From: Thermoprotei archaeon
GTDB lineage: Archaea > Thermoproteota > Thermoprotei > Gearchaeales > Gearchaeaceae
Assembly (NCBI GenBank): GCA_017857595.1
Contig: JAFMCU010000002.1
Coordinates: 458-64,457, forward strand
Direction of reading: 5' to 3'
DNA: 64,000 nt
The notes under the pieces are model-generated. The model was not told the origin of the DNA. It did not search any database and saw nothing but the letters and a program-made list of their open reading frames with translations. Below are positions 7,459 to 15,070 of the stretch, one piece after another. The translations under genes and the position numbers were made by a program. The number at the start of each line of letters is the position of its first letter. Position 1 is the stretch's first letter.

Positions 7459-9663
7459 TTATTCTTTATTAAAATATTTATCCAATTTTTCGTAAAATTC
7501 CTTTTCATTGTATAGAGCACTATAAATTATTTTCATCTTCTTAAATAATCTTTCAGCTGTATAATTATTCTTTTCCTCAAGTTTTAATAAATGCTTTTTA
7601 AGCACATCGTTTTTTAATTCATATGAGATCTTATTTTTGCATCTGAAACATCGAGCATTTAAGGTAATAAAAGGATAGCTCTCACCGCATCTTTTACACG
7701 TAACCTTAATATTAACTTCACTTGTAATAATACTAACTAAACTTTTTAGTGGAAATACTTGCATGATTGTATCAGTTGTTATTGGGGCTCTAACCTTTAG
7801 TCTTATAGCAAATTTGTCTTTATAAGATGATACTTTATTATTAATTTGGTCGTTTAATATTATAAATTTTATATTAAAAATATTATTATCAATTAATGGC
7901 GAGTAGTTTATTAATATATCATTTAAAAAATATAAACTTATATCATTGGTCGCTGCGTATTCATTAAATAATTTATTATATAATTCAGGAGAGATGATAG
8001 CATATTCAGTATCAATATAACCTTTAACTATTACTGGATAGAATATTAAACCTTCCGAATTTGATATCAATAGAATGTTCAATAGATTTTTAAATAATCT
8101 TTTAGCTGAACCAATTAATAATTCCATTTCTTCTTTTAAATAGTCATTGATTTTTTCTATATTCTGCTTAAGTGAACTAGGGAGTAAAATTTCATTATAA
8201 TTAAGTTCAATCTCTTGCGAATCATCTATTACAATTTTACAGGGAATAGCCTTACATTTTATTTCAGCTAAAGCTACTTCGTTTATATCAATTGAATGCT
8301 TTAATCTAACTAAAGTTTTCAACGGATATTCTATGAGATGGATATCTTTATAATGCGGTATTAATTTTTCTGTTTCATCATAACCTAGAATTTTATTAGA
8401 AAATTTTTTAAGTAATCTTAAATAATTGATCTGTTCTACATAAGCTGATAAGGTGGTAGAGCCACATACTTCACAACTGGTATCTTTTCTAATATCATTA
8501 CAGTTGGTACAATAATATAACAAACTTTTGTTTAAATTGCATTCTGAACAATACTCAAAAATATCAACCTTGCCACATTTTTTACATAAAAAATGATGAA
8601 CTTCAACGTTAATTGTTTTATCAAATTGGTTTTTGAAAATAGCTGGCAATATGCAGTTGAAAGCCTCTTTGGGTTCTACATTTTCATCTAAAATAGTTAA
8701 TTTCAATGTTTCTTTTGAATCGAATTTGCTTCTTTCATTTAAAAATACTATTGTATCAATAGTATTTTTATTAATTATAAAAGCATGTTTAGAATTATAA
8801 TGTTGATAATTATCATTTTCATTTATGTATATGCAAGTCATATTTGATAAATTAAATACATTAATTAATGGTATATTAATATTGACTAAAACATTATTTT
8901 TTAATATAATTGATTTATTAACTAAATTACATAAATCATATAAATATTCTAAATTGATATTTAAATATTTACATTTTTTTAATATATTATAAACTTTATG
9001 ATTTTTGTATAGTATTAAATATATAGCATGATATAATAAATAAGGTATCATACTATTATTATCAGTATCTATAATATTTATCTTAATAGAATTTATTAAA
9101 ATATAAAATATATCAAATAGGTTGTTAAATACATCTATCGAGTTGGTATCAAAGTTACTTACCAAATATCCCCATGCTTGATCTTTTAATTCAGAATTTA
9201 CTTTATAACTAGAAGCATTTATTGTTTCTCTAATTTTTTCACCAAACAGGTAGGTAAGAAAACATACCCAAGGATTTTTAATAAACTCTTTCTTATCCAC
9301 CACAATTGTGATATTATTACCTTTTTCTATGTCTTCTTGATAAACTGCCTTTATACTATAAATTGGTGTTTTAAATTTAAAGTCAAAAAACCAGAGAAGT
9401 GCTGCTATTACACCTTTTTTAAGATTTTCATTAGTATCGGTATCTAAATTAATCTTTTTTAATGAGATATTTTCAATCAATTCTAAGCACGAACTTATTT
9501 TATCTGTATTATTAGCGGTCAAGAAGAAATTAGCAAGTTCAAAAGAGTTAAAGAACAGTAATAATAAATCATCCATATCTAATTTATAAAAAGGGAAAAT
9601 ACCTTCTTTTCTTAACGGTCTAAATTGGTTTTCTATATTAAATATATCAGATAAAATTTCCAT
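7459..9663 (-). CDS. Multi-zinc-ribbon protein, candidate degenerate homologue of the PolD large subunit (DP2)
   Basis: 734 aa. Four CxxC pairs at aa 360-400 (FLCKKCGKVDIFEYCSECNLNKSLLYYCTNCN..CEVCG). C-terminal CKRCGESYPFITLNARCFRCKNK is followed by ISYEL..KKHL..YTAERL..IYSALY. FLNDILINYS resembles DP2 LLDALLNFS. See findings. Confidence 0.45.
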   Translation of the reverse strand: MEILSDIFNIENQFRPLRKEGIFPFYKLDMDDLLLLFFNSFELANFFLTANNTDKISSCLELIENISLKKINLDTDTNENLKKGVIAALLWFFDFKFKTPIYSIKAVYQEDIEKGNNITIVVDKKEFIKNPWVCFLTYLFGEKIRETINASSYKVNSELKDQAWGYLVSNFDTNSIDVFNNLFDIFYILINSIKINIIDTDNNSMIPYLLYHAIYLILYKNHKVYNILKKCKYLNINLEYLYDLCNLVNKSIILKNNVLVNINIPLINVFNLSNMTCIYINENDNYQHYNSKHAFIINKNTIDTIVFLNERSKFDSKETLKLTILDENVEPKEAFNCILPAIFKNQFDKTINVEVHHFLCKKCGKVDIFEYCSECNLNKSLLYYCTNCNDIRKDTSCEVCGSTTLSAYVEQINYLRLLKKFSNKILGYDETEKLIPHYKDIHLIEYPLKTLVRLKHSIDINEVALAEIKCKAIPCKIVIDDSQEIELNYNEILLPSSLKQNIEKINDYLKEEMELLIGSAKRLFKNLLNILLISNSEGLIFYPVIVKGYIDTEYAIISPELYNKLFNEYAATNDISLYFLNDILINYSPLIDNNIFNIKFIILNDQINNKVSSYKDKFAIRLKVRAPITTDTIMQVFPLKSLVSIITSEVNIKVTCKRCGESYPFITLNARCFRCKNKISYELKNDVLKKHLLKLEEKNNYTAERLFKKMKIIYSALYNEKEFYEKLDKYFNKE

Positions 9664-11349: not shown

Positions 11350-11727
11350 TTATATAAGACTTGCGAGATTTAAATTTTTGCGCTGATAAGCTGCATTAAA
11401 AATATCATAGAGCTGTTCTTTTCTCAGTTTATACTCATTCATTGAATTACATAACGAGCATGCAATTAAATGATAACATGCTTTATTTTTATTACGCATT
11501 ATAATGTTAGTAAATCCTAAACATGAACACCATTCGTCTTTAATAACCAAGTAGTTAGACGCCTTACCTTGCACATAAAATAAATTATTATATTTTATCT
11601 TAAAGTGAAGCTTATTTATTTTATTACTAATTATCAACTCTTTAGCGATTCGAATTTTTTTAGATTCTCTCTTAATTATTCCAAATCTCTTAATATATAA
11701 CCTAATTTTCTTTTTCAATTTTTTCAT
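11350..11727 (-). CDS. SWIM-type zinc-finger protein
   Basis: 125 aa from MKKLKKK. SWIM motif WCSC-x14-CYH (CxCxnCxH). The track ORF (to 11787) is an artefactual extension through the tRNA-Pro gene. Confidence 0.55.
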   Translation of the reverse strand: MKKLKKKIRLYIKRFGIIKRESKKIRIAKELIISNKINKLHFKIKYNNLFYVQGKASNYLVIKDEWCSCLGFTNIIMRNKNKACYHLIACSLCNSMNEYKLRKEQLYDIFNAAYQRKNLNLASLI

Positions 11728-11729
11728 AG

Positions 11730-11803
11730 TGGGACTGCCAGGATTTGAACCTGGGTCACTAGGGCCCGAGCCTAGCAGTCTGACCAAGCTAGCCTACAGT
11801 CCC
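11730..11803 (-). tRNA. tRNA-Pro (CGG)
   Basis: GGGACTG...CTAGG-CTCGGGC-CCTAG...CCAGG-TTCAAAT-CCTGG-CAGTCCC-A. Anticodon CGG followed by G37. GC-rich island. Confidence 0.8.
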
Positions 11804-11886
11804 AATATTTAATTATAGTATTTATAATTTAAAATTAGCAGTTCCGAATAAGGGAACATTTAAATTACTATTTTTTAAATATCTTC

Positions 11887-13932
11887 ATGTTAGATTTTGG
11901 GCTTATAAGGGCAGTTAGTAATAATCTCAGACTTATGATACTTTATTACTTGAGTAATAAACAATGTTGTTCTATAAAAGAATTAAGCGCGTATTTAAGG
12001 TTGCCCGAAAAAAAATATAATTTTTTGTATTATCATGTAAAAAAAATGTTAGACTTCGGATTGATCTATAAAAATAATGAGGGATTAATATGCTTAACAA
12101 AAAAGGGTAAAAACTTGATTAACGTCTTGATTGATTTAAATAGATGGTCAAACGATTATAAAGAAGAGGATAAGTATATTATAAATTTGGATGGTTCTCT
12201 AAATAAAATAAGCATCCCCTATATAATTTCATATCTAAAAGGAAATTTTAATTTAGAACATGAAAATATTTTTAAAATATCTCAAATTATATATGAAAAA
12301 ATATCATCTTCAAATAAAAACCTCTACACTAATAGCGATATTTTAAAACTCCTCTTGACTACTTTCATTAAGGATAATTCATCAAAAGATTATCAATATC
12401 TATTAGATTCAGTTTTTATAACATTTCCATTTGAAAAAATATTATATTCCAATAATAAAAATTATGATATATGTATATTAAATCGAGAATATTATAATGA
12501 ATATTTCGTTAACAAGTTCTTAGATTATAATCAGATTATTTATTTTAAGATGAATTATTTTAATATTATAGATAAATATAATTTATTATCCGATGTAATA
12601 GATTTTTCCTTAAGAATTTGCATAAATAATTTAAATTTTGATAATATATTATACGACGAGTCATATATAAATAAATTAATTAAATTAATAAATAAATCTA
12701 TATTAGGTTGTAACATAGAATTATATTTCAATGATAATAATGTCAATAAAGTATCTAGCGTAGATCTAAAATTGTTATATCCATATATAATCTATATCCT
12801 AAGCATGTTAAATGAAAGGAAATTAATGATATCATTAAGGTCATATAATGATCTTAAGTGTATCAGTTCATTAACGGACGAAAATCTCTTAAAATATATA
12901 TTATATAGCAACATGATTAAAAATTTACCAAGCTGGAATTTTTTTGTGAGTAGAGAGATTTCTTCGTTGGTTAATTTTGTGAATAACACTAATAATTCTT
13001 TACTTGAATTATTTCCCTCTATTTCGTTTAGTAATGAATCAAGCATTAGTTTAACTTCTTATGGTTTTATAGGTGATGAATCCTCAACAACTTTTAATAT
13101 TAATTCACTGGTTTCTTTGAATTTACCTAAAATATTATTGGATAGTAAATCGAATGAAAACTTATTTTACGATACATTAGAGGATTTGTCTGTAAGTTTA
13201 TTCAAATATTTTGATAAAAGATATAAATTTCTGACCGATACAAGCTACAATACCCAAGTTACAAATGAGACATGCTTAAATTTTAGAATAAATATAAACG
13301 GGTTGTTTGAATATGTATACATTCTAACTGGAGAAACATTGCAGGAAAATAAAAATACCCAAAAAGAATATATAAAGCTTCTTAATTTCCTAAATAATGT
13401 AACAAACGAATTTCTACAGAATAGAGATTACGATGTGAAAATTTCAATTCTCAATGACGGAGTTTCACCTATTAAGTTTAGAGAGACGTCAATAGTAAAT
13501 AAGTTAAACAAGCTGCCTATTAGATATAGGCGCTATTTAATGCATAATGGTATTTCATGTAGTATAATTCCAAGCTGTTTTAATTACTCATCAATTTACG
13601 AGAAGATAATCAGAGAAACTCCTATTGTTTCTTTAATAAAAGGGGGGTATAATTATGAACTATGGCTTGATTTGAATAAGTTAAAAATAAATAAGCTACA
13701 AGAATTGTTCGAAAGTACATTATTGAAATATAAAATGAAAAACATAGAATTGAATTATTTTATAACGTTATGTATGCGGTGTAAAAATAAATATTTAGGT
13801 TTCTATGAGAGTTGTCCTTCATGCGGAAGTCATAACTTATTTTACGTAGCTAAGAATTACACAAAAATAGTAAAATTAGCATACGAGGGTGCGAAACAGT
13901 TATTAGAAAATAACTATTTATACATTATTTAA
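11887..13932 (+). CDS. wHTH plus ATP-cone-like plus class III ribonucleotide reductase (NrdD)-like protein, apparently lacking catalytic residues
   Basis: 681 aa. ArsR-like wHTH at aa 10-75. aa 97-165 are ATP-cone-like (YIINLDGSLNKISIPYIISYL...). NINSLVSLNLPKILLDS compares with NrdD NNLGVVTLNLPRIALDS. The C-terminal CMRC-x10-CPSCGS ribbon is followed by AKNYTK where NrdD has SRITGY. See findings. Confidence 0.5.
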   Translation: MLDFGLIRAVSNNLRLMILYYLSNKQCCSIKELSAYLRLPEKKYNFLYYHVKKMLDFGLIYKNNEGLICLTKKGKNLINVLIDLNRWSNDYKEEDKYIINLDGSLNKISIPYIISYLKGNFNLEHENIFKISQIIYEKISSSNKNLYTNSDILKLLLTTFIKDNSSKDYQYLLDSVFITFPFEKILYSNNKNYDICILNREYYNEYFVNKFLDYNQIIYFKMNYFNIIDKYNLLSDVIDFSLRICINNLNFDNILYDESYINKLIKLINKSILGCNIELYFNDNNVNKVSSVDLKLLYPYIIYILSMLNERKLMISLRSYNDLKCISSLTDENLLKYILYSNMIKNLPSWNFFVSREISSLVNFVNNTNNSLLELFPSISFSNESSISLTSYGFIGDESSTTFNINSLVSLNLPKILLDSKSNENLFYDTLEDLSVSLFKYFDKRYKFLTDTSYNTQVTNETCLNFRININGLFEYVYILTGETLQENKNTQKEYIKLLNFLNNVTNEFLQNRDYDVKISILNDGVSPIKFRETSIVNKLNKLPIRYRRYLMHNGISCSIIPSCFNYSSIYEKIIRETPIVSLIKGGYNYELWLDLNKLKINKLQELFESTLLKYKMKNIELNYFITLCMRCKNKYLGFYESCPSCGSHNLFYVAKNYTKIVKLAYEGAKQLLENNYLYII

Positions 13933-14250
13933 TTAGCCACCGTGAACAAAAGAAAATATAGTTAATGAATCTCCCTTTTTAATAATCTTCCTTTCATTTA
14001 ACCAAGCAGGAAATACCTTCCCATTATATTCTATTAAAATATCTGAAGAAATATCGTTTTGTTCATTTAAAATCCTATTTTTAAATTCTGTTCCCAACTT
14101 ATTGGATAAATTATTAATTAACTCTTTAAGTTCTATTTCATTATCAGTTATTTCTAAAATAATCTCATCAGTCTTAGCAATGCCTTTTAGTACACCTTTT
14201 AAACTTACTTTGATAATTTTATTACTCAAATATAAAGCACACATGATCAA
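13933..14250 (-). CDS. Beta-grasp ubiquitin-like / sulfur-carrier protein (MoaD/ThiS/SAMP/Urm1 family) with C-terminal Gly-Gly
   Basis: 105 aa ending ...GDSLTIFSFVHGG-stop. MoaD-like pattern IKVSLKG...ILIEYNGK....L..GDS..I.P.V.GG. The start is uncertain because of the N-terminal extension MIMCALYLSNK. Confidence 0.6.
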   Translation of the reverse strand: MIMCALYLSNKIIKVSLKGVLKGIAKTDEIILEITDNEIELKELINNLSNKLGTEFKNRILNEQNDISSDILIEYNGKVFPAWLNERKIIKKGDSLTIFSFVHGG

Positions 14251-15070
14251 TCAATCGTTCCTCTATAATACATGGGGGTTCTCTCTTCACTACTTTTTTA
14301 TTCTTTAAAAAAGCTAAAAAAGATTTTTTAGCTTCTTCAAGATTATCATTCTTTAAAAAATCTATGGGATAGTTTACATTATATACTTTAGCAGGAAAAA
14401 TATGCCTAGTTGTTTTTGCGGGGAATAAAATATTGTATTTTGCATTTTCAATCACTTCTCTTTTAGTTACTTTTTGTGGTATAATATAAAAATATTTAAG
14501 ATGTTCTTTTGATTTTATCTCTTTTAGTAATTCTTCTTCAGTAATAAATTCGATTTTTCCATTTAACAAGATAACTTCATTGTCAAATTTTTTTATTAAA
14601 TCATTTATTTTTATGTAATTATCTTCGGCAATTAAAAATATATCACCCTTACTAATAAAAAAAGCTGAATTTGATGAATTAAAAGTATTATTATAGTCTC
14701 CGCTTACATGGATAACTTTTAATTTATAATTTTTTATCACTTTTCTTACGATGCTTGAATCATTGACTTTAAACTTTCTGATCCATCTTTGAACTTCTAC
14801 AAGATTATTTATATAGTCGATTAAAACTACAGGCACGCTGAAAACACCTAATCTCTTTAGTGCCTCAAAACGATGCATTCCATCCAGTATAACATTTGTT
14901 ATCTTATCCACTATTATTGGATGTTTTACTAACTTTTTGCGTACCATATCTTCTACTATTTTATTAACGGCTTCTTCTATTACTTCTTCGTGAGGCAGCA
15001 ATTTTTTGATCTCAAATAATGTGATTTCTATCTTAAAATTATCAAAATATAAGTCATATGGTTCATTCAT
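14222..15070 (-). CDS. ParB/sulfiredoxin-fold domain protein (possibly related to archaeal ADP-dependent serine kinase SerK)
   Basis: 282 aa. The N-terminal domain LLPHEEV...HPIIVDKITNVILDGMHRFEALKRLG..VPVVLIDY has the DGxHR motif of the ParB N-terminal/Srx fold. Confidence 0.5.
   Translation of the reverse strand: MNEPYDLYFDNFKIEITLFEIKKLLPHEEVIEEAVNKIVEDMVRKKLVKHPIIVDKITNVILDGMHRFEALKRLGVFSVPVVLIDYINNLVEVQRWIRKFKVNDSSIVRKVIKNYKLKVIHVSGDYNNTFNSSNSAFFISKGDIFLIAEDNYIKINDLIKKFDNEVILLNGKIEFITEEELLKEIKSKEHLKYFYIIPQKVTKREVIENAKYNILFPAKTTRHIFPAKVYNVNYPIDFLKNDNLEEAKKSFLAFLKNKKVVKREPPCIIEERLIDHVCFIFE

Follow-up and report, generated by a model that had tools for sequence, protein, structure and literature searches.

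In this study, we characterised a gene at positions 11887..13932 (+) of a 64,000-nucleotide stretch of archaeal DNA (hereafter the window), which encodes a 681-residue protein built of an ArsR-type winged helix-turn-helix (wHTH), a degenerate ATP-cone, a catalytically dead barrel of the class III ribonucleotide reductase (RNR) NrdD, a zinc ribbon and the remnant of a glycyl-radical loop. With a probability of roughly 60%, we read it as a divergent nanoarchaeal member of a family of archaeal NrdD paralogues that have lost radical chemistry, gained the winged helix and serve as nucleotide-sensing regulators. The gene is complete, with its ATG at 11887 and its stop codon ending at 13932, and its domains were assigned from the open reading frame (ORF), Pfam, an AlphaFold2 model searched with Foldseek, and the relatives P0006-P0019. 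A first-pass annotation, made from the letters alone, had proposed that the protein joins a DNA-binding domain to an NrdD scaffold devoid of activity; our results bear this out and show the loss of catalytic residues to be broader than the two it had named.

The protein is clearly descended from an NrdD. Pfam NRDD (PF13597) matches residues 398-651 across positions 272-532 of its 562 (E 1.4e-16; 60.7 bits, well over the gathering cut-off of 26.2), so that the profile search suggested by the first-pass annotation came out in favour of its view that the remainder of the protein tracks class III RNR. All NCBIfam NrdD equivalog models match as well, far under their cut-offs (45.9 bits against 326), and a sequence search of the PDB gave as its sole match the NrdD of P. 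copri (8p23), a weak one (E 4.8e-4). Its alignment pairs KGGYNYELWL with RGGHIFYVEI and brings the CxxC...CPxCGSH ribbons together, two correspondences that the first-pass annotation had drawn, and the placement of SLNLPKI was equally sound (residues 410-416, nt 13114-13134; motif positions right within one residue). The AlphaFold2 model, built with 12 family sequences, has a predicted local distance difference test (pLDDT) score of 77 and a predicted template modelling score (pTM) of 0.68. When it was compared with the PDB by Foldseek, the first 35 matches were class III RNRs, the best being 8p23_B (E 2e-17), over 570-750 aligned columns, and the list continued with class I and II RNRs. Because this alignment spans the whole protein, the N-terminal half, which every sequence profile missed, is also NrdD-like. 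The ten-stranded alpha/beta barrel can thus be placed at residues ~195-625 (12469..13761, +), given the full-length matches to 8p23, 9d3x, 4u3e, 4coi and 1hk8 and the Pfam NRDD hit. Within it, the NLPK motif (family form NLPR; residues 412-415, 13120..13131, +) is among the few barrel motifs kept family-wide, N412 and P414 being nearly invariant, and it is followed by the C-terminal zinc ribbon (C629, C632, C643 and C646; 13771..13824, +), whose four Cys are invariant in all alignments and align to the 8p23 ribbon. In the region around this ribbon (13645-13839, residues 587-651), Pfam TackOD1 (E 2.5e-4) and HypA match as well, both below threshold and most likely through generic zinc-ribbon similarity. 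Compared with class III enzymes of known structure (T4, 1hk8; T. maritima, 4coi/4u3e; P. copri, 8p23), the window protein is alike in body fold, zinc ribbon, NLPR-type motif, the order of N-terminal cone and linker, and a hairpin at the site of the Gly loop; it differs in its added N-terminal winged helix, in that no activase was found in the window, and in lacking the thiyl Cys, the beta-A Cys, HxHD, the NxN flap and the radical Gly.

These losses can be followed position by position. Where canonical enzymes carry MGCR or MCCR, ~20 residues ahead of SLNLPK, the window protein has a finger-loop hairpin (ISLTSYGFIG, residues 387-396, 13045..13074, +; model strands 387-390/393-396) with S391/Y392 at its tip, and no Cys occurs anywhere in residues 326-462. 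By alignment, the beta-A Cys is absent, with no Cys ahead of the D-x-R segment, and so is HxHD, the motif by which NrdD holds the triphosphate of its substrate (PMC11226230); its site is occupied by N226-I227-I228-D229 (12562..12573, +). At the C-terminus, KNYTKI aligns to the canonical RITGYY, and the glycyl-radical loop remnant (residues 651-664, 13837..13878, +; model strands 651-657/660-664) forms a hairpin tipped by Y658/T659 in place of RxxG[FWY]; the nearest Gly, G668, lies outside this loop, inside the following WNxxK-like helix. The CxxxCxxC radical-SAM motif of an NrdG-type activase was found in none of the ORFs of at least 80 residues within the 64-kb window. The absence of the thiyl Cys, the Thr aligned with the radical Gly and the want of an adjacent NrdG gene had each been pointed out before; the modelled hairpins at both loops and the alignments agree, placing neither a Cys nor a Gly at the radical positions.

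Family-wide, the same positions show free variation in the 79 full-length bathyarchaeial copies in which we counted them. Cys never occurs at the beta-A position (E 47, G 7, S 6, others) and only sometimes at that of the finger loop (L 20, F 16, C 11, S 9, T 5, others), and the radical Gly position is mostly something else (A 24, S 14, T 11, gap 9, L 5, Y 5, G 3); HxHD is degenerate and the NxN flap deleted. Canonical NrdDs encoded alongside keep the beta-A Cys (14/14), the CC finger loop (14/14), RxTGYY (14/14), the NxN flap (14/14) and an HxHD-type motif (13/14). In the paralogues, columns conserved at 90% or more make up 44% of the ATP-cone, 35% of the linker, 24% of the wHTH and 11-12% of the barrel, and in the C-terminal domain they are the four zinc Cys only. 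The Asn of NLP(R/K) is kept in 78 of the 79 copies, and in a nine-sequence cross-phylum alignment 57 of 68 invariant columns lie within the first 250 residues. A conserved cone and winged helix beside drifting catalytic sites is the signature of a sensor and an output domain on a structural scaffold, not of an enzyme.

Residual catalytic residues do occur among the bathyarchaeial copies. Eleven of the 79 have Cys at the finger-loop site (TGCR; L023, L027, L034, L036 and seven others), in most cases combined with Glu at beta-A and either Ala or a gap at the site of the Gly, and the Gly is retained in three copies distinct from these eleven; both groups look like intermediate stages of inactivation. 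Separately, two G+C-rich proteins (P0038 and P0039) combine an ATP-cone with NRDD, have no winged helix and apparently lack the radical Gly as well as the Cys of the finger loop (SRFGVLF); they may represent a second, independent lineage of inactive NrdD.

The predicted winged helix occupies residues 10-75 (11914..12111, +), as the first-pass annotation had it. In the window protein HTH_5 scores 20.4 bits (E 4.9e-4), slightly under its cut-off of 22, and HTH_20 also matches; the orthologues exceed the HTH_5 cut-off at 30-33 bits. The model shows the expected helix-helix-helix-wing topology at residues 13-70 (helices 13-25, 30-36 and 41-56; wing strands 60-62/68-70). Across the family alignment R15, L22 and H50 are invariant and Y49, L54 and G74 nearly so; the pair Y49-H50 lies on the recognition helix. 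Like ArsR/SmtB-type regulators (HTH_5/HTH_20; DUF7347), the first 75 residues have a helix-turn-helix-wing arrangement with an xxYHLxxL recognition helix; unlike them, the protein has no metal-site signature, carries a far larger C-terminal sensor or scaffold and scores below the Pfam HTH_5 cut-off.

The ATP-cone is the weakest-supported part of the domain assignment. It had been proposed at residues ~97-165, and we place a cone-like domain at residues 95-178 (12169..12420, +). Fold and position stand: the region is collinear with the Pfam-positive ATP-cones of the less diverged relatives P0014, P0017 and P0019, and residues 97-178 are modelled as a beta-hairpin (strands 97-99/105-107) plus helices. 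The sequence does not follow, since Pfam ATP-cone (PF03477) has no match at E <= 10 in any of the seven proteins of the divergent group to which the window copy belongs, and hhalign against the family cone gives E 2.3e-4 at a probability of just 44%. The family consensus is VR.S...E.F.R.KI...LIRE.VN...YRH.LTRLG; where it conserves R/K/E, the window copy has I, N, Y and L. A nucleotide-sensing module is therefore doubtful in the window protein itself.

The composition of the window protein is low in complexity and rich in N/L/I/K/S/Y, with 14 cysteines in total, and this bears on how its relatives were found. Word-indexed searches with the protein or with a 12-sequence alignment gave only itself or canonical NrdDs, low-complexity words swamping the candidates; a search seeded from better-composed relatives, together with an exhaustive HMMER (phmmer) search over 1.8 billion representatives, recovered the family. 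The latter found 17 proteins, seven of them full-length relatives of 640-680 residues; against P0006-P0015 the E-values run from 6e-65 to 1e-6 and residues 3-677 of the window protein are covered. The closest relative, P0006, is 29-31% identical (E 6e-65), and P0007 follows at E 1e-25. Four further hits (P0014, P0017, P0018 and P0019) are 725-764 residues long, and three of these (P0014, P0017 and P0019) are Pfam-positive for wHTH, ATP-cone and full-length NRDD, the last at up to 242 bits. The window and the loci of P0006, P0014 and P0018 (L007-L009) have a gene order in common (Urm1/ThiS-like, ParB_N-like, S17e, thermosome, AAA_18), which identifies these three as orthologues from related genomes. 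Further members are named at NCBI 'anaerobic ribonucleoside-triphosphate reductase [Bathyarchaeia]' or 'helix-turn-helix domain-containing protein [Nitrososphaerota]'. A GTDB scan of one genome per species with two conserved peptide patterns, one drawn from the wHTH recognition helix, confirmed at least 596 relatives; the best 80 of these are all full-length genes from Bathyarchaeia or Hecatellales, the complete genome of Ca. Bathyarchaeum tardum included. The architecture extends to hundreds of species of Bathyarchaeia. A gene for tRNA-Pro(CGG) lies divergently 5' of the regulator gene in the window (11729..11803, -; ARAGORN, Rfam), in L009 (7848-7923) and in Bathyarchaeia (L033 4694-4771; L029 53-130; L031 2343-2420), and this pairing across phyla argues for an old, vertically inherited locus. 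For a pair of a tRNA and a protein-coding gene, such cross-phylum conservation is unusually deep.

What the family might regulate is suggested by its neighbours. Class II-type RNR genes stand directly downstream, on the same strand, of the genes for P0019 and P0034 (L005, L012/L013), a dCTP deaminase (dcd) gene starts 17 nt past that for P0031 (L011), and a canonical nrdD lies 1.4 kb downstream of that for P0029, beside pyrB/pyrI (L010). In Bathyarchaeia, 22 of the 79 regulator genes are followed, no more than 1.6 kb away and in the same orientation, by a gene for an RNR catalytic subunit (20 nrdD and two class II), in seven cases with a small glutaredoxin/NrdH-like ORF between it and the regulator gene, and 23 of the 79 loci have pyrB convergent downstream. 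Neighbours in deoxynucleoside triphosphate (dNTP) synthesis are present at L005, L010-L014 and L061 and at 20 other bathyarchaeial loci. That the linked genes belong to three different kinds within the dNTP pathway, depending on the lineage, speaks for a connection in function and against a frozen accident, and given this frequent adjacency to genuine DNA-precursor genes the family probably regulates them.

From these observations we infer the outline of a mechanism. NrdD is a dimer, and for this reason we propose that the dead NrdD body acts as a dimerising scaffold. The ATP-cone, and possibly the old specificity site too, would bind ATP/dATP or other (d)NTPs, and ligand binding would change the presentation of the paired winged helices to DNA. 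The predicted outcome is control of dNTP-synthesis promoters (nrdD, class II RNR, dcd) and probably of the family's own promoter as well. The family would then act as a functional analogue of bacterial NrdR, not as a member of the NrdR family: NrdR profiles of Pfam and NCBIfam have no match in the window protein, the N-terminus of which is a wHTH and the length of which is 681 residues. With NrdR, a bacterial RNR repressor composed of a zinc ribbon and an ATP-cone, the family would share its logic, a DNA-binding domain and an ATP-cone encoded near RNR genes, with the ATP/dATP state setting transcription. Outside the cone the two are non-homologous; here DNA would be contacted through the predicted wHTH rather than a zinc ribbon, a dead enzyme body of 450 residues is added, and the cone of the window copy, unlike that of NrdR, is degenerate. 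The parallel with NrdR drawn by the first-pass annotation, of a factor responsive to dNTP/ATP, accordingly fits the family better than this one gene: adjacency to RNR and dcd genes and the conserved cone and wHTH speak for it, but the window copy has a degenerate cone and no RNR gene nearby. A second precedent may be NrtR, a Nudix-like domain joined to a wHTH (PMC2330246), in which an enzyme fold has likewise been kept as an effector or scaffold module on a DNA-binding domain, annotated as an enzyme and recognised through its neighbourhood. It differs in enzyme family and pathway, and in the present family it is the accessory cone that has been conserved as sensor, whereas the former active site seems to have been taken apart. 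By analogy, our finding may be placed among ATP-cone-based RNR regulators and enzyme-derived transcription factors of the NrtR kind.

Several results weigh against this interpretation, most of them for the window copy in particular. Its cone fails Pfam and is without the family's conserved Arg, Lys and Glu. It shares just 29% identity with its closest orthologue and so evolves faster than any other gene of the syntenic block, in which the thermosome is 92% and the GGGP synthase 74% identical; relaxed constraint could account for this. Within the 64-kb window no gene for RNR, dcd or pyr was found, and 57 of the 79 bathyarchaeial copies are not adjacent to an RNR gene. Finally, palindrome and k-mer enrichment in Bathyarchaeia demonstrated no operator shared by the promoters of the regulator gene (REG) and of RNR genes. 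The window copy is the most degenerate form in the family, yet it retains the winged helix, the barrel, NLP, GLFE, GGY and the four ribbon Cys. Most likely, it is still a DNA-binding regulator whose nucleotide sensing has been weakened or altered, its bearer relying on a host for nucleotides.

The competitor that survives best, which we regard as possible at clearly lower odds, is a DNA-binding protein that neither senses nucleotides nor controls RNR, with the barrel as a mere dimerisation scaffold and with other targets or a general DNA-associated role. A degenerate cone next to a wHTH and a zinc ribbon that are still conserved is in keeping with such a protein, as is the company it keeps: no nucleotide-metabolism gene was found in the window, and its partners in Nanoarchaeota-like loci (Urm1/ThiS-like, ParB_N-like and S17e, plus HTH_3 in L007 and L008) include no RNR. 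It accounts poorly, however, for orthologues in other phyla, which are strongly linked to RNR and dcd genes and have a highly conserved cone.

Rather unlikely, though a real alternative for the window copy, is a decaying relic, that is, an inherited gene drifting toward loss in a host-dependent nanoarchaeon after its function has gone. Podar et al. reported that nanoarchaea lack de novo nucleotide synthesis (PMC3655853), which together with the rate of divergence, the low-complexity composition and the degenerate cone would suit such a fate. Yet an unbroken, untruncated reading frame of full length is preserved in at least two lineages that share no more than 29-31% identity and in several others still further removed; the wHTH residues, NLP, GLFE, GGY and the four ribbon Cys have all survived; and dead genes of 2 kb are rarely retained in genomes so reduced. 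Near-identical alleles recur, moreover, in many Yellowstone samples: metagenome contigs from its hot springs, the longest of 249 kb, encode a protein identical to the window copy, and a 406-kb contig encodes one that is 99% identical, from which we take the organism for a Yellowstone nanoarchaeon. The available alleles differ by just 1-2 residues, too few for an estimate of dN/dS.

A regulator acting at the level of protein, in which the dead subunit pairs with or titrates an active RNR or its effectors and the wHTH is secondary, seems improbable to us. A paralogue of a dimeric enzyme, encoded beside an active NrdD in many Bathyarchaeia and with a strongly conserved cone, might behave in this manner. 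But the family also adjoins class II RNR and dcd genes without a nearby NrdD partner, Yellowstone nanoarchaea are reported with a class II and not a class III RNR (the Nst1 genome, N. equitans being said to have an anaerobic RNR; PMC3655853), and few segments are as well conserved as the recognition helix of the wHTH, which supplied one of the two patterns that recovered hundreds of GTDB matches.

We reject, as very improbable, a working but extremely divergent class III RNR, or a threonyl-radical variant akin to PFL-type enzymes: the NrdD fold, the zinc ribbon, the database label 'anaerobic ribonucleoside-triphosphate reductase' on relatives and Thr659 at the former Gly-loop tip would allow it, and Ala/Ser/Thr radical enzymes exist (PMC11528403), but the finger-loop Cys, the beta-A Cys and HxHD are missing, as is CxxxCxxC from window ORFs of at least 80 residues, all NCBIfam NrdD models score far under their cut-offs, and the catalytic columns vary freely in a family whose true NrdD neighbours keep them. 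The aminoacyl radical enzymes, which the family resembles in having Ala, Ser or Thr at the Gly site (A 24, S 14 and T 11 of 79), are of the PFL type, and all known ones keep a catalytic Cys and an adjacent activase; the window protein has no such Cys, no activase was found in the window, and the position is freely variable. Among class III RNRs, Fu et al. sought non-Gly enzymes in InterPro IPR012833 and found none.

The reading as a nucleotide-sensing regulator would matter beyond this gene. NrdR is rare in archaea (PMC9110341), and the family is a concrete, testable candidate for the transcriptional control of archaeal RNR. We consider it an evenly balanced proposition that the family, which spans several archaeal phyla (Nanoarchaeota, Bathyarchaeia/Hecatellales and Nitrososphaerota), serves as an ATP/dATP-sensing transcription factor for dNTP-synthesis genes and so fills the place of NrdR that had seemed vacant in archaea. 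The family also offers a clean case of a radical enzyme turned putative pseudoenzyme regulator, with intermediate states still visible. A practical consequence concerns annotation: as members are labelled 'anaerobic ribonucleoside-triphosphate reductase' and pass the Pfam NRDD cut-off, genome-based claims of an archaeal class III RNR can be wrong, possibly including claims for reduced symbionts such as nanoarchaea. If our reading is true, annotation of these proteins as active class III RNRs distorts the metabolic and oxygen-tolerance inferences made from archaeal genomes. The combination of wHTH, cone and dead NrdD is apparently undescribed, in line with the first-pass annotation, to whose author it was unfamiliar: the partial library that we searched in full text contains no description of an HTH-fused inactive NrdD, nor of DUF7347, and Burnim et al., who sorted class III enzymes by their finger-loop motif, do not mention such HTH-fused proteins.

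The promoter regions offer some candidate elements. Upstream of the window gene lie 83 nt (11804..11886, +) with A/T-rich TATA-like boxes, and between two of these stands the perfect palindrome GTTCC-N7-GGAAC (11841-11857), unique in the window. We rejected it as an operator, since L009 does not conserve it and since at least one copy turned up in 41 of 100 shuffles, which is no more than chance would give. In Bathyarchaeia the first signals from palindrome and k-mer enrichment proved to be the T-arm of tRNA-Pro and the RNase P RNA gene, and were likewise set aside. REG promoters there have ACT[CT]TAA-T4-6-A[AG]A[CG] in common, with a perfect CTCTAA-N4-TTAGAG palindrome in L032, and the intergenic regions from REG to the RNR gene have TACAGAA...TTTWAWAC-N5-12-YCTAA, unlike the REG promoter element. 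These A/T-rich elements are suggestive only and may simply be B-recognition element (BRE)/TATA boxes; their statistics ignore relatedness, and the control set was built on crude ORF starts.

The remaining features of the locus are described here for completeness. The window has a G+C of 23-35% and contains, among others, six tRNAs, a thermosome gene, RNA polymerase subunits, a GGGP-synthase-type gene and an archaeal RNase P RNA gene (1-219, -), which is cut by the window edge. An RNase P RNA gene is found directly or ~1.2 kb downstream of the regulator gene in several Bathyarchaeia (L052 7253-7572; L050 7255-7575; L035 8364-8683; L044 8387-8706). In the less diverged loci L007 (319-1011) and L008 (178-897), an HTH_3 (Xre-type) gene precedes the regulator gene by 15-46 nt on the same strand; neither the window nor L009 has such a gene there. 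Farther 5' in the window, a 734-residue ORF (7459-9663, -) has several CxxC pairs of zinc-ribbon-like appearance, no Pfam match and 34% identity in L009, and is fast-evolving. Between this ORF and the regulator gene, a 145-residue ORF (11350-11787, -), which appears as a 125-residue version in most metagenome gene calls, extends into the tRNA-Pro gene and carries a CxC...CxH (SWIM-like) pattern, again with no Pfam match. Convergent with the regulator gene are a Urm1/ThiS-like ubiquitin-fold gene (13933-14250, -) and a 282-residue gene with a weak ParB_N match (14222-15070, -), which overlap by 29 nt; this pair is kept in every Nanoarchaeota-like locus examined (L007, L008 and L009).

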